A stretch of 64,000 bases of DNA from an uncultured Acidobacteriota bacterium (lineage in GTDB: Bacteria; Acidobacteriota; Thermoanaerobaculia; Multivoradales; SZUA-115): the NCBI GenBank assembly GCA_963805975.1, contig CAWDVR010000001.1, positions 1,280,001 through 1,344,000 of the forward strand, in the 5' to 3' direction. Position numbers and translations under genes: made by a program. Under the pieces are notes generated by a model. The model did not search any database. It was not told the DNA's origin and saw nothing but the letters and a program-made list of their open reading frames with translations. Positions 9,754 through 51,950 of the stretch are shown here, piece after piece (the stretch's first letter is position 1; each line of letters begins with the position of its first letter).

Positions 9754-11126
9754 GGGCTGAGTATGACGCGGATCATCTCCACCGCCTCGGCTCCGGCCAC
9801 CGCGCCGCGCGGCAGGCAGCTCTCGGTGTCGGCGACCAGCCGGCAGCGCGCGGCGGCGGCGCAGACCTCGACCGCCGCGCTCGGGACGGCGCCAGCGGCG
9901 CACGAGCGGACCCCGCCGCGCAGCTTCGCCACCCCGAGCAGAGCACGAAGCGCCGCCAGCCGGCCGAGCCCGCCGCCGGGCGCGAACAGGTGCAAGGTGG
10001 GATCGATGTCCATCAGTCCCAGGTTCACCACCCGCGCGATCGCCTCCCGCTGCGGATGCTCCAGGATATCGCTCGCGATGCGGGCCGTGCCCGGCCGGCC
10101 GTAGCGGACCTCGGGCACCAGCCAGAAGAGGAGCGTCGCGAAGCCGGATCGGGTGAGGGTCGGCCGCCCGGCCAGGGCCTGCACCTCCGCGGGCAGCAGG
10201 GCCAGACGCCAGCGGAACTTGGCGCGCGCCAGCTTGGGCTCGAAGCGCCGCGCGTCGCCCTCCGCTGCCAGCCGCTGGTAGAGATCCACGGCCACCCCTG
10301 GGTCGCCGAGCTCGAGCTCGAGGTCGGCCCGCCGCTCGACGAGGTCCGGCCGCTCCCTGAGCCGCGACGCCAGGTGGGAGAGAGCCTGGAGCTCCGCCCG
10401 GGCGTCCCCCTGGGCCGCGGCCAGCTCGCGGGCGGCGAACCACGCGGCAGTGCCCTCCGGCTCCCAGCCCGCGAGCTGCCGCTGCTCGGCCGAGGCTTCC
10501 TCCAGGCGTCCCAGCCGCAGGGCCTCGGCGAAGCGGTTGGCCACGATCTCGACCGCACGCGGCCGCAGCTCCTCGGCCCGCGCACCGGCCGCGGGGCTGG
10601 CCTCGGCCGTCTCGCGGTAGGCCGTGTAGGCACCCACCACGTCCCCGAGCGCCTCGCGGACGCGCGCCAGGAGCAGCCTCGCCGCGCTCGACTCGGGGCC
10701 CTCTCGCACCGCCGCCTCCAGGCGCTCGGCCGCCGTCTCGTACCGTCGCCGCGCGAAATCCGCCTGCGCGGCGAGAACCGCTGCCGGCTGGAAGCGCGGG
10801 TCGACCGCCAGGAGCGCCGCGGCCGTGGCCGCCGCTTCGTCCGCGGCACCCTCGTCGAGCAGCCGGCGGAAGGCGGCCGCCACGTCCTCGGCCCGCTGGC
10901 CGTCGGAACGGAAAGAAAAGTTGGCGATCGGATCCAGCAGGAAGGGGCGGTCTTCCGTGGCTAGGGGATAGCGCTCCCCGCGGGGACTGGGAGCTTGGGG
11001 CTCGGGACTGGCCGCGCAACCGGCGGCAGCGAGCAGCGCCAGGGCCGCGAGCCCGGCAGCGCTCCTCGGCAGCCACCGCGCCGGCGGGCTACTCTCCCTG
11101 CGCCGGAGCAACGGTGGAGATGGCAT
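9750..11126 (-). CDS. TPR-containing lipoprotein with C-terminal S-layer-homology-like segment
   Basis: Lipobox-like LAAAGC, helical Ala/Leu repeats, and DILEHPQREAIARVVNLGLM...F.P resembling SLH. Confidence 0.65.
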   Translation of the reverse strand: MPSPPLLRRRESSPPARWLPRSAAGLAALALLAAAGCAASPEPQAPSPRGERYPLATEDRPFLLDPIANFSFRSDGQRAEDVAAAFRRLLDEGAADEAAATAAALLAVDPRFQPAAVLAAQADFARRRYETAAERLEAAVREGPESSAARLLLARVREALGDVVGAYTAYRETAEASPAAGARAEELRPRAVEIVANRFAEALRLGRLEEASAEQRQLAGWEPEGTAAWFAARELAAAQGDARAELQALSHLASRLRERPDLVERRADLELELGDPGVAVDLYQRLAAEGDARRFEPKLARAKFRWRLALLPAEVQALAGRPTLTRSGFATLLFWLVPEVRYGRPGTARIASDILEHPQREAIARVVNLGLMDIDPTLHLFAPGGGLGRLAALRALLGVAKLRGGVRSCAAGAVPSAAVEVCAAAARCRLVADTESCLPRGAVAGAEAVEMIRVILSP

Positions 11127-11304
11127 GCTTGTAAACGAGGATCTCCTTGCCGTCGATCTCGAGGACCACGGCGAATCGGTCGAAGCGCTTCAACCTGCCC
11201 GTGAGGCTGCGGCCGGTGATCAGCTCCATGTCCATCGGCCGGCCCTCCTTCAGGCTCTGGAACAGGTAGCCATCCTGGATGTTGATCGTGTGCTTAGTGG
11301 GCAT
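11089..11304 (-). CDS. hfq: RNA chaperone Hfq
   Basis: NIQDGYL, LKRFDRF and VYKHAISTV Sm2 motif; directly downstream of miaA (conserved synteny). Confidence 0.95.
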   Translation of the reverse strand: MPTKHTINIQDGYLFQSLKEGRPMDMELITGRSLTGRLKRFDRFAVVLEIDGKEILVYKHAISTVAPAQGE

Positions 11305-12244
11305 TGAGGGCTCCCCTCCCGACACCTGCGCGCTGCAAATAGATAAAAATCGAGTCCGTCGTTCGGCCGAGGGACGGCCCCTCGAACCAGGTGATGCCGG
11401 GTTCCTTGCGAAACCACGTCCCCTGCCGCTTGGCAAATCGGCGTGTGGCTCGCACGATCTCGTCCAGGGCCAGATCGAGGCTCCAACCCTCGAGCAGATG
11501 GCGGCTGAGCTGGCGATAGCCGATGGCCTGAAAAGCCGGGAGCTCCGGCGAGAGACCGCTGGCGATCAGGCTTCGAACCTCCTGCAACCAACCGCTCTCC
11601 ATCATGCTATATACCCGGCCTTCGATGCGATCGTACAGGATGGCCCGAGGAACCGTCAATCCGATGCGCAACGCCGAAAAAGGCTGCTCGCCGAAGGGCT
11701 GCTGGGTGATCCAGGACGAGAGCGGCCGGCCGCTCGTGAGAGCCACCTCGAGGGCTCTCAGGGTACGCTGGGTGTCGGTGCCCGCGAGGCGCGTGGCGGT
11801 CGCCGGGTCGAGGCTGGCGAGCTCTTTCTGCAGCGGCTCGAGGCCCTCCTGCTCGAGCCTGCAGCGCAAGGCCTCCCGCACCGCCGGATCGCCCGGCGGC
11901 ACCGGGCTCAGGCCTTGAAACAGAGCGCGAAAGTAAAGGCCGCTGCCGCCGACGACGATCGGCATCCTGCCGCGGGCGAGGATCTCGGCGATCGCAGTCC
12001 GCGCGCGGCGCGCGAACTCGCCCGCCGAGTAGCGCTCGTGCGGCTCGAGCAGGTCGATCAGGTGGTGGCGTACCCGGGCGCGTTCCTCGGCACCGGGCTT
12101 GGCGGTGCCGATGTCGAAACCGCGGTAGACCTGGAGCGCGTCGCCGTTGACGATCTCGCCGCCCAGGGCCGCCGCCAGCTCGAGCGCCAGCGCGCTCTTG
12201 CCGGCAGCCGTGGGACCAACGATCGCGAGCACCGGGGGCATCAT
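11294..12244 (-). CDS. miaA: tRNA dimethylallyltransferase (start ATG 12244 or 12241)
   Basis: GPTAAGKS, DALQVYRGFDIGTAKP, VGGSGLY and FAKRQ.TWF. Confidence 0.96.
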   Translation of the reverse strand: MMPPVLAIVGPTAAGKSALALELAAALGGEIVNGDALQVYRGFDIGTAKPGAEERARVRHHLIDLLEPHERYSAGEFARRARTAIAEILARGRMPIVVGGSGLYFRALFQGLSPVPPGDPAVREALRCRLEQEGLEPLQKELASLDPATATRLAGTDTQRTLRALEVALTSGRPLSSWITQQPFGEQPFSALRIGLTVPRAILYDRIEGRVYSMMESGWLQEVRSLIASGLSPELPAFQAIGYRQLSRHLLEGWSLDLALDEIVRATRRFAKRQGTWFRKEPGITWFEGPSLGRTTDSIFIYLQRAGVGRGALNAH

Positions 12245-14502
12245 CGCCAGTCTACCCGGATGGAAGGCGGGCCCACCGCGCTGACGCGGAGCGGCCTGGC
12301 CTCGGCGAGCTCGACCCTCAGGGCCCCTAGCCGGTCGGTCCGCAGCACCTGGGCGCCGTGTGCCTGCAAGCGCTCCAGGGCTTGCGCCGCCGGATGGCCG
12401 TAGGAGTTTGCGCGCCCAGCCGAGATCAGGGCCGTGCGAGGTTCCGCCAAGGCGAGGAAGCTCCGGGTGGACGAGGTTCGGCTGCCGTGGTGAGCGACCT
12501 TGAGGAGGTCGGCCGCGAGCAACGAGCCCCAGCGCCGGCCGAGGACCGCCTCTCCCCGGCCCTCGATGTCGCCGGCCAGGAGCACGCTGCGCCCCAGGGC
12601 CTCCCCCTTGAGCACCAGGGAGGCGTCGTTGCCCTGGAACCGGTCGTCCGCGGCCGGGTGGAGCACCCGGAAGCTCCAGCGCCCTCGCCGTAGCTCGTCG
12701 CCGGCCGCGAGCCCGATCCGCCGCTCGCCCGAGCGCTGGGCGAGCTCGCTCCCACAGCCGTCCTCCGGTGATCCTGGGGCCATCCAGGCCTCGCCGATCG
12801 GCAGGTAGTCGAAGAGGTCCACGAGCCCGCGGCAATGATCGCGGTCGCCATGGCTCAGCACCACTGCATCGAGCCGGCGGACACCCTCTCCCAGGAGGGC
12901 GGGCAGGAGCACTGCCCCGGCCAGGTCGCCCTGTTCCCATCCGCCGCCGTCCACCAGCAGGGCGTGGCGCCCGTCCCGCAGCAGGATGGCGTCGCCCTGC
13001 CCCACGTCGAGCATCACCACGGTCACTCCACCGTCGCGGTTCGGCCAGAGGAGGCAGAAGATCAATGCCACTGCGAGCGCCGCGAGGCCAAGGGCTCGGG
13101 GCCTGGCGAGGATCCGGTAAAGACCGAGGGCCAGGGCCGTGGCGCCGAGCCCGCCGAGGGCCACCGGCATCGTCCACAACGGACCCCAGGCGGAAGCGGA
13201 AAGCCAGCCCACCGGCGCCGCCAGAAAGTCGAGCACCGGGACCGAGGCCCTGGCTACACCAGGTGCGAGGACGGCCAGCATCGTCCAGGCGAGCGCGGCC
13301 AGCAATGCGATGGACATCCAGGGTATGAACAGCAGGTTGGCGAGCGGTGCGGCCGGGGCCAGGAGGTGGAAGGCCGGCAAAGCCCACGGAATGGTGGCGA
13401 CCTGGGCGCCGACGGTGGCTGCGAGCGGCCGGGAAAGCCCTCGCGGCAGGCGGGTCCAGGCCGCTTCCAGCCGCGGCGCCAGGAAGACCAGGCCCGCGGT
13501 CGCGGCCACGGTGAGCTGGAACCCGAGATCCAGGACCAGCGAAGGATCCCAAGCCACCAGAACGCCGGCCGCCACCGCCAGGGAGTTGCCGCTCTGGGGC
13601 GGTCTCTCGAGCAGCAGGGCCGTGGCAGCCAACGCCGCCATCAAGGCGGAGCGCAGGATCGCCGGCGAGGGCCCGACGAGAAGGATGTAAGCGACGACGG
13701 CGGTAGCGGCCAGGGCGAGGCGGAAGCCGCGGCGCGCCCCGGTGCCGAGCACCAGCGCGGCGGCTACGACCATACCGATGTGCAGCCCGGAAACGGACAG
13801 CACGTGCGACAGCCCCCAGCGCCGCAGGCCGCGCTTCCAGGTTGCCGGCAGCGCACTGGTATCGCCCAGTGCCAGGGCTCGCGCCAGAGCCACACCCGGT
13901 CCGCTCGCCGCCGCGTCCCGATAGCCGGCGTCCACCCGCGCCCGCAGGCGAGCGGACCAGGAGGACAAGGCGCCCGCGGCCTCCTCCACCTCGATCAACC
14001 TTGTGCTCTTCACGTAGAGCCGCGTCGGGCCGGGAGGAGTGGGCCGCCGGTTCCAGAAGCCGGACGAGCGGTAGAGCTGGCCTTGCAGCCGGACCCGCGT
14101 GCCCAGCCCCGGCAGCTCAGCATCGGCTGGCGCAGAAACGATCAGCCGCCGCGGCAACGAGAAGACCTGGCCACGCTGCTGCAGGCTCTCGACCGCGAGC
14201 GTGGCGGTCGCCGTTTCACCCGCGCGACGCCAGTGACTGGCAACCCGGCCGGCCACCGCCGCGGGCCGGCCCAGGTCGACCCGCTGTCGGTGCGGCTCGG
14301 CCGGCAGCTCGCCGCGTGCGACCGGCAGCAGGAAGCCGAGGCAGACCCAGGCGAGCCAAAGAGAGGAGCGCCGGCCGAGGGCCAGGCCGGCGAGCGCCAG
14401 GCCGGCAACCAGCATGCCAGCGGCCCGCAGGTGAAAGCCGAGCGCGGCACCGGCCAGGAGGCACAGGACGGGGACGAGGGCGGGCAGGCGTGGCGGATGC
14501 AC
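12241..14502 (-). CDS. comEC: DNA uptake competence protein ComEC/Rec2
   Basis: Competence domain HVLSVSGLH and GFQLT; metallo-beta-lactamase domain DVGQGDA, SHGDRDH and KVAHHGS. Confidence 0.93.
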   Translation of the reverse strand: MHPPRLPALVPVLCLLAGAALGFHLRAAGMLVAGLALAGLALGRRSSLWLAWVCLGFLLPVARGELPAEPHRQRVDLGRPAAVAGRVASHWRRAGETATATLAVESLQQRGQVFSLPRRLIVSAPADAELPGLGTRVRLQGQLYRSSGFWNRRPTPPGPTRLYVKSTRLIEVEEAAGALSSWSARLRARVDAGYRDAAASGPGVALARALALGDTSALPATWKRGLRRWGLSHVLSVSGLHIGMVVAAALVLGTGARRGFRLALAATAVVAYILLVGPSPAILRSALMAALAATALLLERPPQSGNSLAVAAGVLVAWDPSLVLDLGFQLTVAATAGLVFLAPRLEAAWTRLPRGLSRPLAATVGAQVATIPWALPAFHLLAPAAPLANLLFIPWMSIALLAALAWTMLAVLAPGVARASVPVLDFLAAPVGWLSASAWGPLWTMPVALGGLGATALALGLYRILARPRALGLAALAVALIFCLLWPNRDGGVTVVMLDVGQGDAILLRDGRHALLVDGGGWEQGDLAGAVLLPALLGEGVRRLDAVVLSHGDRDHCRGLVDLFDYLPIGEAWMAPGSPEDGCGSELAQRSGERRIGLAAGDELRRGRWSFRVLHPAADDRFQGNDASLVLKGEALGRSVLLAGDIEGRGEAVLGRRWGSLLAADLLKVAHHGSRTSSTRSFLALAEPRTALISAGRANSYGHPAAQALERLQAHGAQVLRTDRLGALRVELAEARPLRVSAVGPPSIRVDWR

Positions 14503-14509
14503 GCCCCCT

Positions 14510-14538
14510 AAGACGGGAACCGGCGCGGAAACCTTACC
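14510..14538 (-). promoter_or_regulatory. Putative ECF-type promoter GTAAG-N17-CGTCTT upstream of comEC
   Basis: The minus strand reads GGTAAG gtttccgcgccggttcc CGTCTT, 7 nt before GTG 14502; the same motif lies upstream of radC. Confidence 0.5.
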
Positions 14539-14944
14539 GCTGGCATACCTTGGCCATCGTCACCTGGCCGGAAAGGAACGCACCCTCCGCGATCACCACC
14601 CTCGAGGCAGCGATGTTGCCTTCCAACTTTGCCGAGGCGGCGAGCTCCACGAGGTCGCTGGCCACCACGTCGCCCGCGACTCGGCCGGCGATGGAGATCG
14701 TGCGGGCCGCGATCCCTCCCTCGACCTCGCCGCCCGCGGCCACCCTCACCACTCCCTCGGTCGCGACGCTGCCCACCAGGAGACCCTCGACTCGCAAGTC
14801 CGCGGCGCCGCTGACCACGCCTTCGAAGCGCGCCCCGGCGGTGATCAGCGATCCCGGCCCCGATGCTGCCGGGCCGGAGCTGGGGCGCGGCGCTGCCGCG
14901 GCGGCTCCGGGAGAGGAGAGCGGGTCACGACGGAAGATCGACAT
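14534..14944 (-). CDS. Bactofilin (polymer-forming cytoskeletal protein)
   Basis: SLITAGARFEG...LRVEG...VEGGIAARTISIAGRVAGDV...IAEGAFLSG beta-helix pattern. Confidence 0.88.
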   Translation of the reverse strand: MSIFRRDPLSSPGAAAAAPRPSSGPAASGPGSLITAGARFEGVVSGAADLRVEGLLVGSVATEGVVRVAAGGEVEGGIAARTISIAGRVAGDVVASDLVELAASAKLEGNIAASRVVIAEGAFLSGQVTMAKVCQR

Positions 14945-14962: not shown

Positions 14963-15038
14963 TGGAGCGGGCAACGGGACTCGAACCCGCGACATCAAGC
15001 TTGGGAAGCTTGCACTCTACCAACTGAGTTATGCCCGC
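14963..15038 (-). tRNA. tRNA-Gly (anticodon CCC), CCA encoded
   Basis: GCGGGCATAACTCAGTTGGTAGAGTGCAAGCTTCCCAAGCTTGATGTCGCGGGTTCGAGTCCCGTTGCCCGCTCCA forms a 76-nt cloverleaf. Confidence 0.97.
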
Positions 15039-15049
15039 TCGCGGCGGCT

Positions 15050-15078
15050 AATGTAGCGGAGGCCCCGAAAGTGGTCAA
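15050..15078 (-). promoter_or_regulatory. sigma70 promoter of tRNA-Gly
   Basis: TTGACC-N17-TACATT on the minus strand, 11 nt before the tRNA 5' end. Confidence 0.75.
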
Positions 15079-33811: not shown

Positions 33812-34564
33812 ATGGCACGGCCTATCAAGCGACTCGTTGTTCTCGCAGGGCTGGCGCTTCTCCTGCCTTTACCGGCAGCTCGCGGCACGGAGGAGGTTTC
33901 CGACCTCCTCCGCCGCCAGACCCAGGAGATGCTCGACGCGGTTGCCGTGGGCGGGGCCACGGTCTGGGAGCGCTACCTCGACCCCAAGGCGGCCTACACC
34001 GCGGAGGACGGCACGGTCTACACCAAGTCGAAGCTGGTAGAGGGCATCAAGCCGCTGCCGGAGGGCGTGTCCGGCACCATCCGGGTGATCGACTTCCAGG
34101 CCACGGTCCACGGAAACGTGGCGATCGCCAACTACGTGGCCGACGAGCACGAGGACTACCACGGCCACGAGCTGCACTGCCAGTACCGGAACACCGATAC
34201 CTGGCTTCAGACTCCCGAGGGCTGGCGACTGATCGCCGCCCAGGCCCTGGCGCTGCGCACTGACCCGCCCGCGGTGCCGCTCACCGACCGCCAGATGGAC
34301 GAGTATGTGGGTCGCTATGCGCTGACGCCGTCCATCACCTACGAGATCCGCCGCAAGGGCGATGGCCTCGAAGGCCAGCAGGTGGGCCGCCCCGCGGAAG
34401 AGCTGCGTGCCGAGGCACCGGACGTGCTCTTCGTGCCCGGCAGGCCCCGGTACCGCAGGATCTTCCAGCGCGGGCCGGACGACGGCATCACGGCCTTCGC
34501 CGAGCGCCGTGAGGCCTGGGACCTCGGCTGGAAGCGGCTGCCCCCTACTCCGCCGCCTTCCTGA
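33812..34564 (+). CDS. Exported DUF4440 (NTF2-like) protein with C-terminal DUF3471-like domain
   Basis: Signal peptide; TDTWLQTPEGWRLIAAQ; MDEYVGRYAL; alternative start 33782. Confidence 0.75.
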   Translation: MARPIKRLVVLAGLALLLPLPAARGTEEVSDLLRRQTQEMLDAVAVGGATVWERYLDPKAAYTAEDGTVYTKSKLVEGIKPLPEGVSGTIRVIDFQATVHGNVAIANYVADEHEDYHGHELHCQYRNTDTWLQTPEGWRLIAAQALALRTDPPAVPLTDRQMDEYVGRYALTPSITYEIRRKGDGLEGQQVGRPAEELRAEAPDVLFVPGRPRYRRIFQRGPDDGITAFAERREAWDLGWKRLPPTPPPS

Positions 34565-35330
34565 ACAACCGGAAGAAGTTCGCCGTCGTCCGGGCCGCCA
34601 TCTGCTCGAAGGTCTCGCCGCATTCCTCGGCCAGCCGCTGACCTACTTCCCACACGTAGGCCGGGCGGTTGGGCTTGCCGCGGTAGGGGATCGGCGCCAG
34701 GTACGGAGTGTCGGTCTCGATGAGCGCGCGGTCGGAAGGCAGGGCGGGGATCACCTCGCGAACGTTGTCGGCCCGGGGAAAGGTGATCATGCCGGAGAGG
34801 CCCAGGTAGAAGCCGCGCTCGATCAGCTCGCGGCCCATCGCGAGGCCGCCGGCGAAGGAGTGGAAGTCGGCCTGGAGGTCGGCGAACTCGGGCCGCCGCA
34901 CCATCTCCAGCATCGCCTCGTTGCTGTCGCGGTTGTGGACCACCACCGGCAAGCCCAGCTCGATGGCGAGCGACCATTGCTGGGCGAGCGCACGCTCCTG
35001 CACGTCCCGCGGCGAGTGGTCGTAGTAGAAGTCGAGGCCACACTCCCCCACCGCCACGGCCTTGGGGTCCACGAGCAAGCCTCGCAGGCGCTCACGGCTG
35101 TCATCCTGCCAGCTCGAAGCGTCGTGGGGATGGACACCGAGCGCGCACCACACGTCCGGGTGGCGGTGGCAGAAGGCGAGGATGTCCTCGGCATCTTCCA
35201 GTCGCACGGCCGGCAGCAGGAAGCCGTGGACACCGCGCGCCCGCGCCTCGTCGAGAGCGCGCTCGCGTTCGTCAGGAGGTAGGTTCTGCAGGTGGCAGTG
35301 GGAATCGACGAGAGTCGGCGCGTCGCTCAC
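34545..35330 (-). CDS. tatD: TatD family hydrolase
   Basis: VDSHCHL, GVHPH, VGECGLDFYY and ETDTPYLAP; GTG start overlaps the metG stop. Confidence 0.93.
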   Translation of the reverse strand: MSDAPTLVDSHCHLQNLPPDERERALDEARARGVHGFLLPAVRLEDAEDILAFCHRHPDVWCALGVHPHDASSWQDDSRERLRGLLVDPKAVAVGECGLDFYYDHSPRDVQERALAQQWSLAIELGLPVVVHNRDSNEAMLEMVRRPEFADLQADFHSFAGGLAMGRELIERGFYLGLSGMITFPRADNVREVIPALPSDRALIETDTPYLAPIPYRGKPNRPAYVWEVGQRLAEECGETFEQMAARTTANFFRLFRKAAE

Positions 35331-37232
35331 CGCACCCGCGTCCCGTTGGGCACCGGCTTCTCGGGCGCCAGCAGGATGGCGCCGTCGCCGGGCGAGGCCG
35401 CGAGCACCATGCCCTGCGACTCGACGCCCATGAGCTTCGCCGGCTGCAGGTTGGCGACGATCACCACCTGCCGTCCGACCAGGCTCTCGGGCGTGTATTG
35501 CAAGGCGATGCCGGCCACCACGGTGCGCTGCTCGTCCCCCAGGTCCACGGTGAGCTTTACCAGCTTCTGGCTCTTCGGCACCGGCTCGGCGGCGAGCACC
35601 GTGGCCACCTTGAGCTGCGTTTCCATGAACTGATCGATGGTGATCATGGGACCTTTCTCGGCCGCCGGGGACTTGGCGGCGGCAGCCTCCGCGAGGTAGG
35701 CCGCCTTGTCGATGCGCGGGAAGAGAGGCGAGGGCGACGGCAGCGGTGCGCTGGTGGGGGTGCCGCCCCAGGCCAGCGCCTCGAGGTCCGTGGGCGCCTC
35801 GGCGGTGCCCACCGCGCGGAGCACGGCGGCGGCGGTCGTGGGGATGAACGGCAGCAGGCCGGTGGCCACGATGCGCGTCGCCTCGAGCCCGTTCCACAGG
35901 ATGCGCGAGAGCCGCGTCCTTCTCCTCCTCGCGGCCGATCAGCTTCCAGGGCTCGCGCTGCACGATGTACTGGTTGGTCTCGGCGAGCAGGCGCCACAGC
36001 GCTTCGAGCGCCCGGCTGAAGGCCGGCTCGTCCATCGCGCTCCGGTACTCGGCCGCCACCTCCGCCGCCACCGCGATCAGCGGGTTGTCGTCGCAGGCCT
36101 CGGGCGGGGTCTGGTCGTCGAACGCCCGGCGGGACAGGGTGACGACGCGGCTCACGGTGTTGCCGAGGTCGTTCGCCAAGTCGCTGTTGAAGCGGTCGAT
36201 GAACGCTTCGTCGGAGAAGCTCGCGTCCTGCCCGAAGACCATGTCGCGCAGCAGGAAATAGCGCAGCGCATCCACGCCGAAGCGGCGCGTGAGCTCGTCC
36301 GGGCGCACCACGTTGCCCACCGACTTCGACATCTTCTTGGCGTCGCGCAGCCACCAGCCGTGGGCCCATACCTGGGTGGGGAGCGGCAGGCAGGCCGACA
36401 TCAGGAAGGCCGGCCAGTACACGGCGTGGTGGCGGAGGATGTCCTTGCCGATCACGTGCTGGCGGGCGTCGCCCTCGGCCCAGAAGCGCTTGTAGCGCTC
36501 GTCCTCGACCGGCTGGCCGAAGCCCAGGGCGCTGATGTAGTTGGTCAGGGCGTCCAGCCAGACGTAGACCCGGTGCGGCGGATGACCCGGGAACGGCAGG
36601 CCCCAGGTGAGCGCCGTGCGGGACACCGAGAGATCCTTGAGGCCGCCGGCGACGAAGGCCCGCACCTCGTTGGCGCGCACCCGCGGCCGGACCGGCTGCG
36701 CCTCGCTGTCGTACCACTCGAGCAGGCGGTCCTGGTACTTCGAGAGGCGGAAGAAGAGGTTCTCCTCCTCCTGCTTCTCGACCGGCGTCTCGTGCACCGG
36801 GCAGCGCTGGCCGGAGAGCAGCTCTTTCTCCGTGTAGTAGGTCTCGCACTGCACGCAGTACCAGCCCTCGTGCCGGGCGAGGTAGAGGTCGCCGGCCGCG
36901 TCGATGCGGCGGATGATCTCCGCCACCCCGGCCGCGTGCCGGGGCTCGGTGGTGCGGATGAAGTCATCGTGCGAGATGCCCAGCTCGCGCCACAGCTCGT
37001 GGTAGCGCTGGACCACGCGATCGGCCAAGGCGAGCGGCGCGATGCCCTCGGCGGCGGCGGCGCGCTCGATCTTCTGGCCGTGCTCGTCGGTGCCGGTCAG
37101 GAAGCGGGTCTGGTCGCCCGCCAGGCGGCGATAGCGGGACCAGGTGTCGGCCACCACCGTGGTGTAGATGTGCCCGATGTGGGGCAGATCGTTGACGTAG
37201 TAGATGGGTGTGGTGAGGTAGAAGGTGCTCAT
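35327..37232 (-). CDS. metG: Methionine--tRNA ligase with C-terminal tRNA-binding domain (apparent +1 frameshift at about 35918)
   Basis: YYVN..HIGH, GTDEHG, YVWLDAL and KMSKS; C-terminal RTVVAGIA...ANLQPAKLMGVESQGM in the shifted frame. Confidence 0.95.
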
Positions 37233-38267: not shown

Positions 38268-38951
38268 CTACCAGGGCCGGCGCTCGCGAAGCGAGACCCA
38301 GCGCCCGAAGCCGCCGAGGATCAGATGATCGACCAGCCGAAGGCCCACGGTCTCGGCGGCCTCGGCCATGCGCCGGGTGAAGAGGTAGTCCTCGCCGCTG
38401 GGGCTCGGGTCGCCGCTCGGGTGGGTGTGGAAGAGGAGGAGCGCCGAGGCGTCGCGCAGGATCGCCTCCTTGAGCACCGCCCGCGGCTCGACAGCGGCGC
38501 GGTTGAGGGTGCCGCGGAAGACCTCCCGCTCGCCGATCAACTGGTTGCGCAGATCGAGAAAGAGCGCGCCCATCACCTCCTGCGGGATCGAGCAGTAGCG
38601 CATCACGAGGTAGTCCGCCACTTCGCGGGGTCGGGCGAGCGACACCTTCTGGGGCAGCTCCAGGCGGGCGAGGCGGCGGCCGATCTCGACCGCGGCCAGC
38701 ACGCTGGCGAGCTTGGCCCGGCCGAGGCCGGGGCAGGTCGCCCCCCCATCCCGCAAGCCACGGAGGCCGGCGAGACCGCCGGTCAGGCGCAACAGCTCCC
38801 GGCCCAGCTCGACCGCGGACGCGCCGGGCCGGCCGGTGCGCAGCAGCACCGCCACCAGCTCGGCGTCGGACAAGGAATGGCTGCCGTGCTCGAGCAGGCG
38901 CTCGCGGGGCCGGTCGTCGAGCGGCAGCTCGTGGATCATCAGGCTTTCCAT
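38268..38951 (-). CDS. radC: RadC family JAB-domain protein (full length)
   Basis: DDRPRERL, LSDAELVAVLL and HTHPSGDPSPS.ED. Confidence 0.93.
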   Translation of the reverse strand: MESLMIHELPLDDRPRERLLEHGSHSLSDAELVAVLLRTGRPGASAVELGRELLRLTGGLAGLRGLRDGGATCPGLGRAKLASVLAAVEIGRRLARLELPQKVSLARPREVADYLVMRYCSIPQEVMGALFLDLRNQLIGEREVFRGTLNRAAVEPRAVLKEAILRDASALLLFHTHPSGDPSPSGEDYLFTRRMAEAAETVGLRLVDHLILGGFGRWVSLRERRPW

Positions 38952-38975
38952 CGTGCTCTCTCCCTTCGAGAGAGA

Positions 38976-39004
38976 AAGACGGAAATCGCCCGCCCAGTCT
39001 TGCA
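38976..39004 (-). promoter_or_regulatory. Putative ECF-type promoter GCAAG-N17-CGTCTT upstream of radC
   Basis: Minus strand TGCAAG actgggcgggcgatttc CGTCTT, 24 nt before ATG 38951; matches the comEC upstream motif. Confidence 0.5.
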
Positions 39005-39014
39005 GCGAGGGTCA

Positions 39015-39121
39015 CGGGAATCGGGGTGGGGCTGGGGGAGAGCCTGGGAGGAGCGCAGCGTGACCCGAAGGGGGCGTCGAGCACCGCACCGGGCTCTCCC
39101 CCAGCCCCACCCCGATTCCCG
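39015..39121. repeat. Perfect 30-bp inverted repeat with 47-nt spacer
   Basis: CGGGAATCGGGGTGGGGCTGGGGGAGAGCC (39015-39044) and its exact reverse complement (39092-39121). Confidence 0.95.
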
Positions 39122-41968: not shown

Positions 41969-41994
41969 GAACTTTCGGCCCCGGCCTCTCGTCT
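41969..41994 (+). promoter_or_regulatory. Putative autoregulatory ECF promoter (leaderless)
   Basis: GAACTT-N16-GTCT ending 6 nt before ATG 42001. Confidence 0.6.
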
Positions 41995-42000
41995 CTCCGG

Positions 42001-42621
42001 ATGATGGCCGCCCTGATGCCCAACCCCGACCTCCTGCTCGCCCGTCGCGCCGCGGCCGGCCAGCCCGAGGCTTGGAACGAGCTGATCGCGCTCTACGGCC
42101 GGCGCATCTTCAATCTGGCCTTCCAGTTCACGGGGGACGTCGCCGAGGCGGAAGATCTGACCCAGGACATCTTCCTGCGCCTGCACCAGAACCTGCGCGC
42201 CTACCGCGGGGACGTGCCCCTGGTGGGCTGGACGCTGCGCCTCTCCCGCAACCACTGCATCGACCACTACCGGCACGCGCGCTCCCAGAACCGCCTGTCG
42301 CGGGTGCCGGAAGAGATCCTCGACCACCTTCCGTCCGCCTCCGATCCCCAGGCCGAGGCCACGCGCAGGGAGCAGCTCGCGCTGGTCTACCGGGCCCTGG
42401 CCGAGCTGCCGGAAGAGCTGGCGGAGATCGTCGTGCTGCGCGACCTGCAAGACCTTTCCTACGAAGACGTGGCCCAGGCCCTGGACCTGCCGCTGGGCAC
42501 CGTCAAGTCACGACTCAATCGCGCGCGCCAGGAGCTCTCGGAAACCGTGCAGCGCCTGCTCGAGTCACCCGGCGAGCAGCTCCCTCCGAGCGTGCTTGCC
42601 GGCAACGGGGAGGGCGCATGA
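42001..42621 (+). CDS. ECF RNA polymerase sigma factor (sigmaW/E-like)
   Basis: AEDLTQDIF, RNHCIDHYR and LSYEDVA..LDLPLGTVKSRLNRAR. Confidence 0.92.
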   Translation: MMAALMPNPDLLLARRAAAGQPEAWNELIALYGRRIFNLAFQFTGDVAEAEDLTQDIFLRLHQNLRAYRGDVPLVGWTLRLSRNHCIDHYRHARSQNRLSRVPEEILDHLPSASDPQAEATRREQLALVYRALAELPEELAEIVVLRDLQDLSYEDVAQALDLPLGTVKSRLNRARQELSETVQRLLESPGEQLPPSVLAGNGEGA

Positions 42622-51275: not shown

Positions 51276-51950
51276 CTACCGCCGTGCGGGCGGCAATCTC
51301 CGCTTCCTCCGTCGCTGCGGCTCGCCAGCCAGGCTTCGCGCTCCGGCGGCACCCTCGGCCACCGACGGCTCGTTGCCGCGCTCCGGGAACGCCGCGCTGG
51401 GGGGCGCCAGGCCCGCGGCGCTGGCTTCGGCGCTCAATACGGCAAGGCAGCGGCTGGTGATCTTGCCGATGCTCGACGGCCGGTACCCCAGATGGGCAGC
51501 CACCTCCTGCGGCTCGAGCCCGAACCAGAAACGCAGGCGCAGCAGGCGCTGGTGCCGCTGCGGTAGGCGCGCGAGGAGTGACTCCAGGTCGCGCGCCAAG
51601 TCCCCCATCTCCTGGGCCGGCTCGGTGGGCTCGGCCAGCCATTCGAGGGTCTCTTCGTCCACCGCCTCGTCCCGCCGGCGGCGGCGGGAGCGCCAATACA
51701 TCAGGCACTTGCGCTTCAACACGCCGACCAGCCAGTGCTGGGGATCGCGGACGGTCTCGCTCCGGTAGACCAGGGCGAGCAGCGCCTGCTGCAGAAGATC
51801 CTCGGCGTCCTCGGGCGGCACGCGGAAGCCGCGCAGCACGGCCATCAGGCGTGGCCGGAGGGCCTCGAGAAAGGCATCCTGGCCGGAGAGCGGCTCGACG
51901 CCGCGCGATGGTGTCACACCATTATTCCAAGGTTTAGAATAACCTACCAC
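51276..51950 (-). CDS. ECF-type sigma factor (start uncertain)
   Basis: EDAEDLLQQALL, WLVGVLKRKCLMYWR and region 4 LP.RHQRLLRLRF..G....EVA..LG. Confidence 0.8.
   Translation of the reverse strand: MVGYSKPWNNGVTPSRGVEPLSGQDAFLEALRPRLMAVLRGFRVPPEDAEDLLQQALLALVYRSETVRDPQHWLVGVLKRKCLMYWRSRRRRRDEAVDEETLEWLAEPTEPAQEMGDLARDLESLLARLPQRHQRLLRLRFWFGLEPQEVAAHLGYRPSSIGKITSRCLAVLSAEASAAGLAPPSAAFPERGNEPSVAEGAAGARSLAGEPQRRRKRRLPPARR

Follow-up and report, generated by a model that had tools for sequence, protein, structure and literature searches.

Promoter-like elements upstream of comEC and radC

This analysis concerns a 64,000-nt stretch of the genome of an uncultured Acidobacteriota bacterium (the window, G000:C1:1280001-1344000, where G000 is the source genome, 5.36 Mb with 70% G+C) and a bipartite, promoter-like element that precedes two of its genes, comEC and radC. 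The DNA-uptake channel gene comEC/rec2 (12241..14502, minus strand) scores above the cut-off of TIGR00361 and carries PF03772, PF13567 and PF00753, and radC (38268..38951, minus strand) scores above the cut-offs of TIGR00608 and PRK00024. The putative competence-type promoter of comEC (14510..14537, minus strand) is composed of a -35 box GTAAGG (14537-14532), a 17-nt spacer and the -10 box TTCCCGTCTT; that of radC (38976..39003, minus strand) reads GCAAGA, a 17-nt spacer and TTTCCGTCTT. An earlier note on this DNA had placed the copies, both of them minus-strand, at 14537-14510 and 39003-38976, with identity at 17 of 28 positions, and both statements were confirmed, as were the gene calls for ComEC/Rec2, RadC, bactofilin, MiaA, Hfq and tRNA-Gly. 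The window holds two matches to the pattern versus 0.02 expected, and none of 100 shuffles held two, the pattern having been drawn from those same two sites.

The comEC promoter is internal to a run of genes on the minus strand headed by a sigma-70-type promoter, TTGACC-17-TACATT (15050..15078; one found versus 0.0 in shuffles). The run starts with tRNA-Gly (14963-15038) and continues with a bactofilin gene (14534..14944; PF04519, start read from the sequence), comEC, and miaA and hfq (11089..12244), which lie directly behind comEC, the miaA start overlapping the comEC stop; the internal promoter would drive these two genes together with comEC. The end of the comEC copy lies 7 nt ahead of the start codon, a GTG at 14502, as the earlier note had it, and with the start codon this close behind CGTCTT the transcript is likely leaderless. 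The TAA of the comEC -35 box doubles as the bactofilin stop codon (14536-14534), and the box can be regarded as independent of that stop because a same-genus orthologue has GCAAG. No stable fold was seen at the comEC site (z 0.2), and no terminator was found.

The surroundings of the radC promoter hold two further structures. Just upstream lies a 33-nt inverted repeat (97%; 39015-39121), the central part of which has ~30 BLAST matches in the genome, forming a REP-like family. On the other side, a hairpin is predicted over the radC ribosome-binding site (38949-38975, minus strand; z -2.3, 6 of 200 shuffles), and a transcript from the radC competence-type promoter would begin within its 5' arm.

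Genome-wide occurrence and putative target genes

Named homologues of one protein of G000 come from Thermoanaerobaculia. Gene models in G000 are codon-score predictions (4,160 genes), and the ranks and distances given for this genome are therefore approximate. The loose pattern GYAAG-N17-CGTCTT matched 12 times genome-wide, and the same boxes at 14-nt spacing matched 11 times; on its own this form is indecisive, since the 14-nt spacing occurs nearly as often (codon periodicity). With the TTYC part included, nine matches were found at the 17-nt spacing versus zero to three at each of 21 other spacings, and the exact form GYAAG-N13-WTYCCGTCT gave nine sites and none for the reversed control, so that the motif is more than an accident of two sites. 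The exact sites precede comEC and radC in the window and, elsewhere, ssb (C1:865768), comM/YifB (C6:244618), dprA (C5:377400) and an Rpn-family nuclease gene (C2:518981), as well as three toxin-antitoxin-type genes (C1:271007, C1:32482 and C2:714079), the identities coming from NCBIfam/Pfam. A weaker site lies ~65 nt before comF (C5:656894). The flanks of the nine exact sites have nothing in common beyond the motif.

A scoring matrix was trained on the comM upstream regions of 28 foreign genomes of the same order, which belongs to the Thermoanaerobaculia (29 minus one without a site). When applied to the 4,160 genes of G000, it ranked dprA 2, ssb 3, radC 5, comM 7, comEC 9 and comF 21, and all nine exact sites fell within the top 11. 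Background-level upstream scores were obtained for lexA (rank 598), recA (713) and ruvB (1,923); a LexA/SOS regulon has its site before lexA and recA, and in this genome the motif precedes neither. The motif was likewise absent from five pilin-like and five PilB/PilT-like genes of G000, located via sequence motifs (ranks 362-4,050), and from comEA in five of five genomes. The enrichment upstream of DNA-uptake and recombination genes anticipated by the earlier note thus holds for dprA, comM, ssb and comF, and fails for comEA, recA and the pilin and PilB/PilT genes.

Upstream of comEA (L404-L408; G000:C5:68188-68700), at least four of five genomes show, as judged by eye, a sigma-54-like TGGCA...TTG element together with a conserved leader; comparison of the comEA and sigma factor loci with Rfam returned tRNAs only. 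One strong site with a 16-nt spacer (G000:C4:123851, plus strand; L010) points antisense into a neighbouring gene and has no called gene downstream.

Conservation and geometry of the motif

De novo sampling of the 70 nt before comM in the 29 foreign genomes of the order recovered the same two boxes at 15.6 bits, compared with 9.5-9.8 bits on three shuffles. Orthologues were taken as the 30 best matches from 41 genomes, G000 among them, and with the comM-trained matrix a score of at least 11 was reached upstream of comEC in 18/30, dprA in 20/30 and radC in 16/30, versus 0-1/30 in controls (opposite-strand and internal sequences). Conservation before orthologous comEC and radC, on which the earlier proposal depended, was in this way borne out.

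The order-wide consensus, built on 93 foreign sites, is G-N-N-A-G-A-T followed, 17 nt from AG, by T-T-N-N-C-G-T-C-T, with each column of CGTC kept in 82-93 of the 93. The spacer is 17 nt in 83 of 98 sites, 18 nt in 13 and 19 nt in two. The first ATG/GTG, counted irrespective of reading frame, lies 7-10 nt downstream in 22/25 comEC sites and 6-10 nt downstream in 24/32 comM sites. The element thereby has the features of promoters read by extracytoplasmic function (ECF) sigma factors, namely a bipartite -35/-10 layout, a spacer of ~16-18 nt and a CGT-type -10 box. ECF promoters have an AAC core in the -35 box, and this core is absent from the G-N-N-A-G-A-T of the motif.

Box variants tend to be common to different genes of one genome (0/300 permutations), exemplified by G003, where the CCTCT variant occurs in four of four sites. 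Such genome-specific variation is expected if a single evolving protein reads the sites, and base composition could contribute to it. Family f8 and G013 have a different, shifted -35 box. When comM upstream regions of 60 further genomes were inspected, the motif was clear in three of four members of the order, in none of six genomes from other orders of the class and in two of 50 from other classes (G049 and G114).

In other genomes of the order, the 20 exact sites examined (18 open reading frames scanned) head genes for Y1/RAYT-like transposases, Rpn and Uma2 nucleases, a DUF222-HNH protein, ssb and comF. A 16-base form of the motif was also scanned over 185,579 species genomes. Among the matches listed, which comprise 80 named loci, 14 are labelled Thermoanaerobaculia or Thermoanaerobaculaceae, and 12 of these 14 head Rpn, RAYT-like or ssb genes, versus one of four other acidobacterial and none of 62 other matches.

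Two different elements were observed upstream of comM outside the order. All four genomes of family f14 (L075-L078), from another order of the class, have the conserved element CCGAGGTAGCCTCGG, and G085 and G162 (in the L114-L133 set), both from other classes, have TGCA...CTATTGGCGTCT in common, perhaps a variant promoter.

A candidate sigma factor encoded near rpmG

G000 encodes one primary sigma factor and ~50 ECF-like genes. A comparison of two small genomes led to an orphan sigma of divergent sequence (G000:C1:185112-185771) that adjoins tRNA-Val, tRNA-Asp and rpmG. It occurs in 208/212 genomes of the order, nearly always as one match, and groups as a single clade in a quick tree (support 91); rpmG lies within 1.5 kb in 16/30 loci, and sigH of Staphylococcus aureus presumably adjoins rpmG as well. 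The range of the family is drawn from these genomes, two named homologues and atlas clusters. The orphan sigma was not found in five of five genomes of families f14 and f16, where the comM motif is likewise absent, and its best match outside the class is in G049, which has TTGCCAGA...CGTC at comM, dprA and radC.

The profile of the orphan sigma matched the solved structures of SigE, CnrH, RpoE and SigH over both domains (E 3e-10 to 9e-8), in keeping with a protein made of sigma-70 regions 2 and 4 only, with no region 3. TIGR02937 was hit in three of three orphan sigmas, below or near its cut-off, and Pfam scores were mostly below cut-off; the families found are ECF only, with no ComX or SigH homology. 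The modelled structure is helical and two-domained (pLDDT 80.5). ECF sigmas typically have an adjacent anti-sigma gene or a regulatory extension; no anti-sigma neighbour was present here, the neighbours being rpmG, tRNAs and unrelated genes.

The orphan sigma leader carries a TGCTA-type housekeeping -10 box, and its Shine-Dalgarno sequence is covered by a hairpin, CCTCCGCTCC/GGAGCGGA. A perfect stem of at least 7 bp over the Shine-Dalgarno was found in 22/30 sigma leaders versus 40/2,099 own genes. The stem shows 15 double-sided changes (0/500 shuffles), mostly in one pair, with a shuffle control that ignores kinship.

G000 (L322, G000:C4:46259-51027) has a second radC with a paralogue of the orphan sigma 1-4 kb away, an arrangement that occurs also in G001 and twice in G002 (L319-L321). 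This second radC lacked the motif in all four loci, and the paralogous sigma was dropped as a candidate reader.

Parallel loss of sigma region 4 and the -35 box

In G002 and G006, which belong to one genus, the orphan sigma ends after region 2, at 129 aa and at the same codon, with the stop 107 nt from the end of rpmG. The truncated gene is under purifying selection (ratio of non-synonymous to synonymous substitution rates, dN/dS, 0.052; dS 0.55), and the other conserved ECFs of both genomes are intact. The same genomes have lost the -35 box: 7/8 strong -10 sites had negative -35 scores, versus 4/48 elsewhere, and these negative values are near the background median of -7.2. A -10-only pattern derived from the eight sites found 21 sites and no control matches. 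Among the 13 that are new, some precede ssb (in both genomes) and four RAYT-like genes, and two look like chance matches inside genes; none scores 3 or higher at the -35 position, and no upstream column is conserved. The idea that the sigma was split into two proteins was abandoned when one query found no separate family region 4, and a second truncation event was not seen, since the five low-scoring genomes of the order that were checked have, among the matches listed, the full-length gene. Downstream of CGTCTA in the -10-only promoters (L411-L431), C and A predominate at two positions (17/21 and 14/21, respectively).

Discussion

The combined results suggest that the motif is a -35/-10 promoter probably read by the rpmG-linked ECF-like sigma, which would jointly switch on DNA import and recombination. 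In this respect the earlier proposal of an alternative ECF sigma behind the comEC/radC motif gained support from the enriched targets and the orthologue conservation, with the better candidate located outside the window. The sigma mRNA would be made from a housekeeping-type promoter and held untranslated by the leader hairpin until some signal opens it, whereupon the sigma would load RNA polymerase on the motif promoters, giving leaderless comEC and comM mRNAs. comEC would thereby be induced from within the tRNA-Gly-bactofilin-comEC-miaA-hfq run. The steps induced would be the membrane channel and the cytoplasmic handling of single-stranded DNA, with pilus, ComEA and RecA controlled otherwise. 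The motif promoter also stands before Rpn, RAYT-like, Uma2 and toxin-antitoxin genes, which would therefore fire when foreign DNA enters. A more far-reaching evolutionary account, to which we give even chances, is that an ECF-derived competence sigma arose independently in one order, with a SigH-like lock and no anti-sigma, a region-2-only form working on -10-only promoters, and nuclease and toxin-antitoxin genes wired in.

Several observations weigh against this assignment. comEA, recA and the pilus genes are outside the regulon, and the label 'competence' rests on gene content. For the predicted fold of the orphan sigma, the matches to ECF sigmas were no better than E 0.1 (none at E 0.001, ECFs in the top rows). 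Many ECF sigmas autoregulate from their own promoter, unlike the orphan sigma, upstream of which the motif occurs in 0/30 loci (500 nt, score at least 10). The hairpin count may be inflated, as the start codon was picked by lowest folding energy. Outside the order the co-occurrence of sigma and motif is loose: G114 has motif-like comM and radC sites and no sigma match at E 1e-14, and related sigmas are present in G082, G083, G085, G096 and G142, of which the three tested (G082, G085 and G096) show no clear motif, scoring having covered 22 candidates per genome. Region 4 and the -35 box disappeared in a single evolutionary event, seen in two species of the same genus; the -35 scores come from a matrix whose training used the 'rest' set (the left-out G000 scores 3.4-9.4), and family f8 and G013 score low at -35 though their sigma keeps region 4. 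Given the one event and these departures, the evidence from the truncated sigma is strong, not conclusive. Conservation across the three genomes compared extends to other ECFs as well, and the CGTCT -10 box is common to the motif and the promoter of an ECF sigma in the window.

The last two points bear on an unlikely alternative, in which the regulon and its alternative-sigma promoter are as described and another ECF reads it, be it one of two in the window or a conserved ECF with an anti-sigma. Several ECFs are indeed reciprocal best matches in both small genomes compared. The earlier note had suggested testing the sigmas at 42001 and 51276 as readers, and neither held up. The former (41969..42621, plus strand) has its own GAACTT-17-CGTCT promoter with an AAC-type -35 box and is found in only 21/61 genomes of the order; the latter (51276..51845, minus strand) is ECF-like, and no counterpart of its four-paralogue family was matched among the sigma loci examined from the motif-bearing G030. 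As for the conserved ECFs, they are 57-88% identical between genomes whereas the boxes vary by lineage, and in G002 their region 4.2 is near-identical in spite of the lost -35 box. A FliA/sigma-28-type reader was discarded, as only one group 1-3 sigma (570 aa) was found in a motif-based search. The 51276 gene forms one family with three tandem orphan ECF-like paralogues beside metK (G000:C1:1249506-1251257).

Somewhat less likely still is that the promoter and the rpmG-linked sigma are as described and govern, in place of natural competence, a foreign-DNA or DNA-damage programme serving repair, DNA feeding or defence. The lack of the motif at comEA, pilin, PilB/PilT and recA genes fits such a programme, as does the prevalence of nucleases and toxin-antitoxin genes among the extra targets. 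The ranks of lexA, recA and ruvB show that the regulon is not of the SOS type, and comEC, comF, dprA, comM, radC and ssb make up the core late-competence set, as far as the excerpts of two papers go (PMC6560143, PMC12378983).

Very improbable is that the motif serves a transcription factor, Sxy/CRP-S-like or a repressor, as the operator through which it acts at sigma-70 promoters. A CRP-S site is a palindrome upstream of a sigma-70 promoter; no site of that type was seen here, the motif being asymmetric and abutting the start codon. The radC and ssb copies do hold a short palindrome, AAGAC...GTCTT, and TA-rich bases follow some sites. The consensus, though, is neither a palindrome nor a direct repeat, its spacer is fixed at 17 nt, a further -10 box would not fit ahead of the start codons 7-10 nt downstream, and the loss of one half of the motif tracks the loss of a sigma domain. 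A chance match, terminator tail or dispersed repeat can practically be dismissed: the loose pattern also matches apparently coding sequence, the -10 part is T-rich and one -35 box is a stop codon, but the foreign-matrix ranks and orthologue conservation refute chance, the reversed control came out empty, and the sites have unrelated flanks, no terminator and no stable fold. SOS/LexA box, terminator, dispersed repeat and palindromic operator were all rejected.

Competence driven by a sigma factor is known from Bacillota, where ComX promoters lack a -35 box and carry the cin-box, TACGAATA. The regulon proposed here has in common with that of ComX/SigX a dedicated sigma and one promoter before comEC, comF, dprA, ssb and radC, and the G002/G006 sites without a -35 box are also ComX-like. 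It differs in that no cin-box is present, recA and pilus genes are ComX targets and not targets here, and no peptide system was seen. The papers cited in this and the following paragraph are used in excerpt; in one, the direct ComX targets include radC, dprA and ssbB (PMC6560143). The SigH regulon of S. aureus and Lactobacillus sakei likewise has one alternative sigma turning on late competence genes; in L. sakei the induction of dprA is strong and that of recA weak (PMC3364868). In S. aureus an inverted repeat covering the ribosome-binding site keeps sigH from being translated, and the leader hairpin of the orphan sigma, predicted in silico, resembles it; sigH sits among translation genes, with nusG and rplK downstream (PMC3486894). 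The differences from SigH are that the matches of the orphan sigma are confined to ECF (group 4) models, with neither SigH nor ComX among the 25 NCBIfam families listed, that the promoter is different, that the host is diderm and that pilus and comEA genes are left out. In working, the candidate regulon resembles those of ComX and SigH; judged by sequence it is a member of neither, with no homology beyond the sigma-70 fold, another promoter and no pilus, comEA or recA genes.

Regions 2 and 4 and a CGTC-type -10 box are shared with E. coli RpoE, M. tuberculosis SigE and SigH and B. subtilis SigW. Unlike typical ECFs, the orphan sigma has neither an anti-sigma neighbour nor a self-promoter, its -35 box is AG(A)T and not AAC, and it has a region-2-only form in one genus. 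The excerpt of the ECF re-classification ties no group to competence control (PMC7826278), and single-domain sigma-like proteins are described as common and unclassified (10.64898/2026.10.08.757525). Sxy/TfoX-CRP-S (Haemophilus, Vibrio, E. coli) and Legionella RocC/RocR work through an activator on sigma-70 promoters or a small RNA, in contrast to the bipartite promoter-like element and sigma proposed here. The Legionella competence set comprises comEA, comEC, comM, radC plus comF (PMC12378983), and the RAYT targets echo a second-hand report of a rise in E. coli yafM in cells induced for competence (PMC5581495). Presence of ComEC tracks recombination in soil populations including Acidobacteria (PMC7305173). 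The literature searched, with most subscription papers outside it, gave no description of the motif, the sigma or an acidobacterial competence regulator.

If correct, the rpmG-linked sigma and its promoter would represent a new route for switching on natural transformation in an uncultured Acidobacteriota order. With a sigma, a promoter and a translational lock named, the competence of these soil and sediment bacteria becomes directly testable in E. coli or in vitro, and there are hints of how transformation might be induced when strains have been brought into culture. The region-2-only sigma and its -10-only promoters would be a natural test of how much sigma is needed, and the common promoter would tie Rpn, RAYT-like and Uma2 nucleases, the roles of which are debated, to DNA entry.

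Apart from these systems, the window contains an 895-aa open reading frame (34545-37232, minus strand) with methionyl-tRNA synthetase and TatD DNase domains, which may be a fusion or the product of a lost stop codon.

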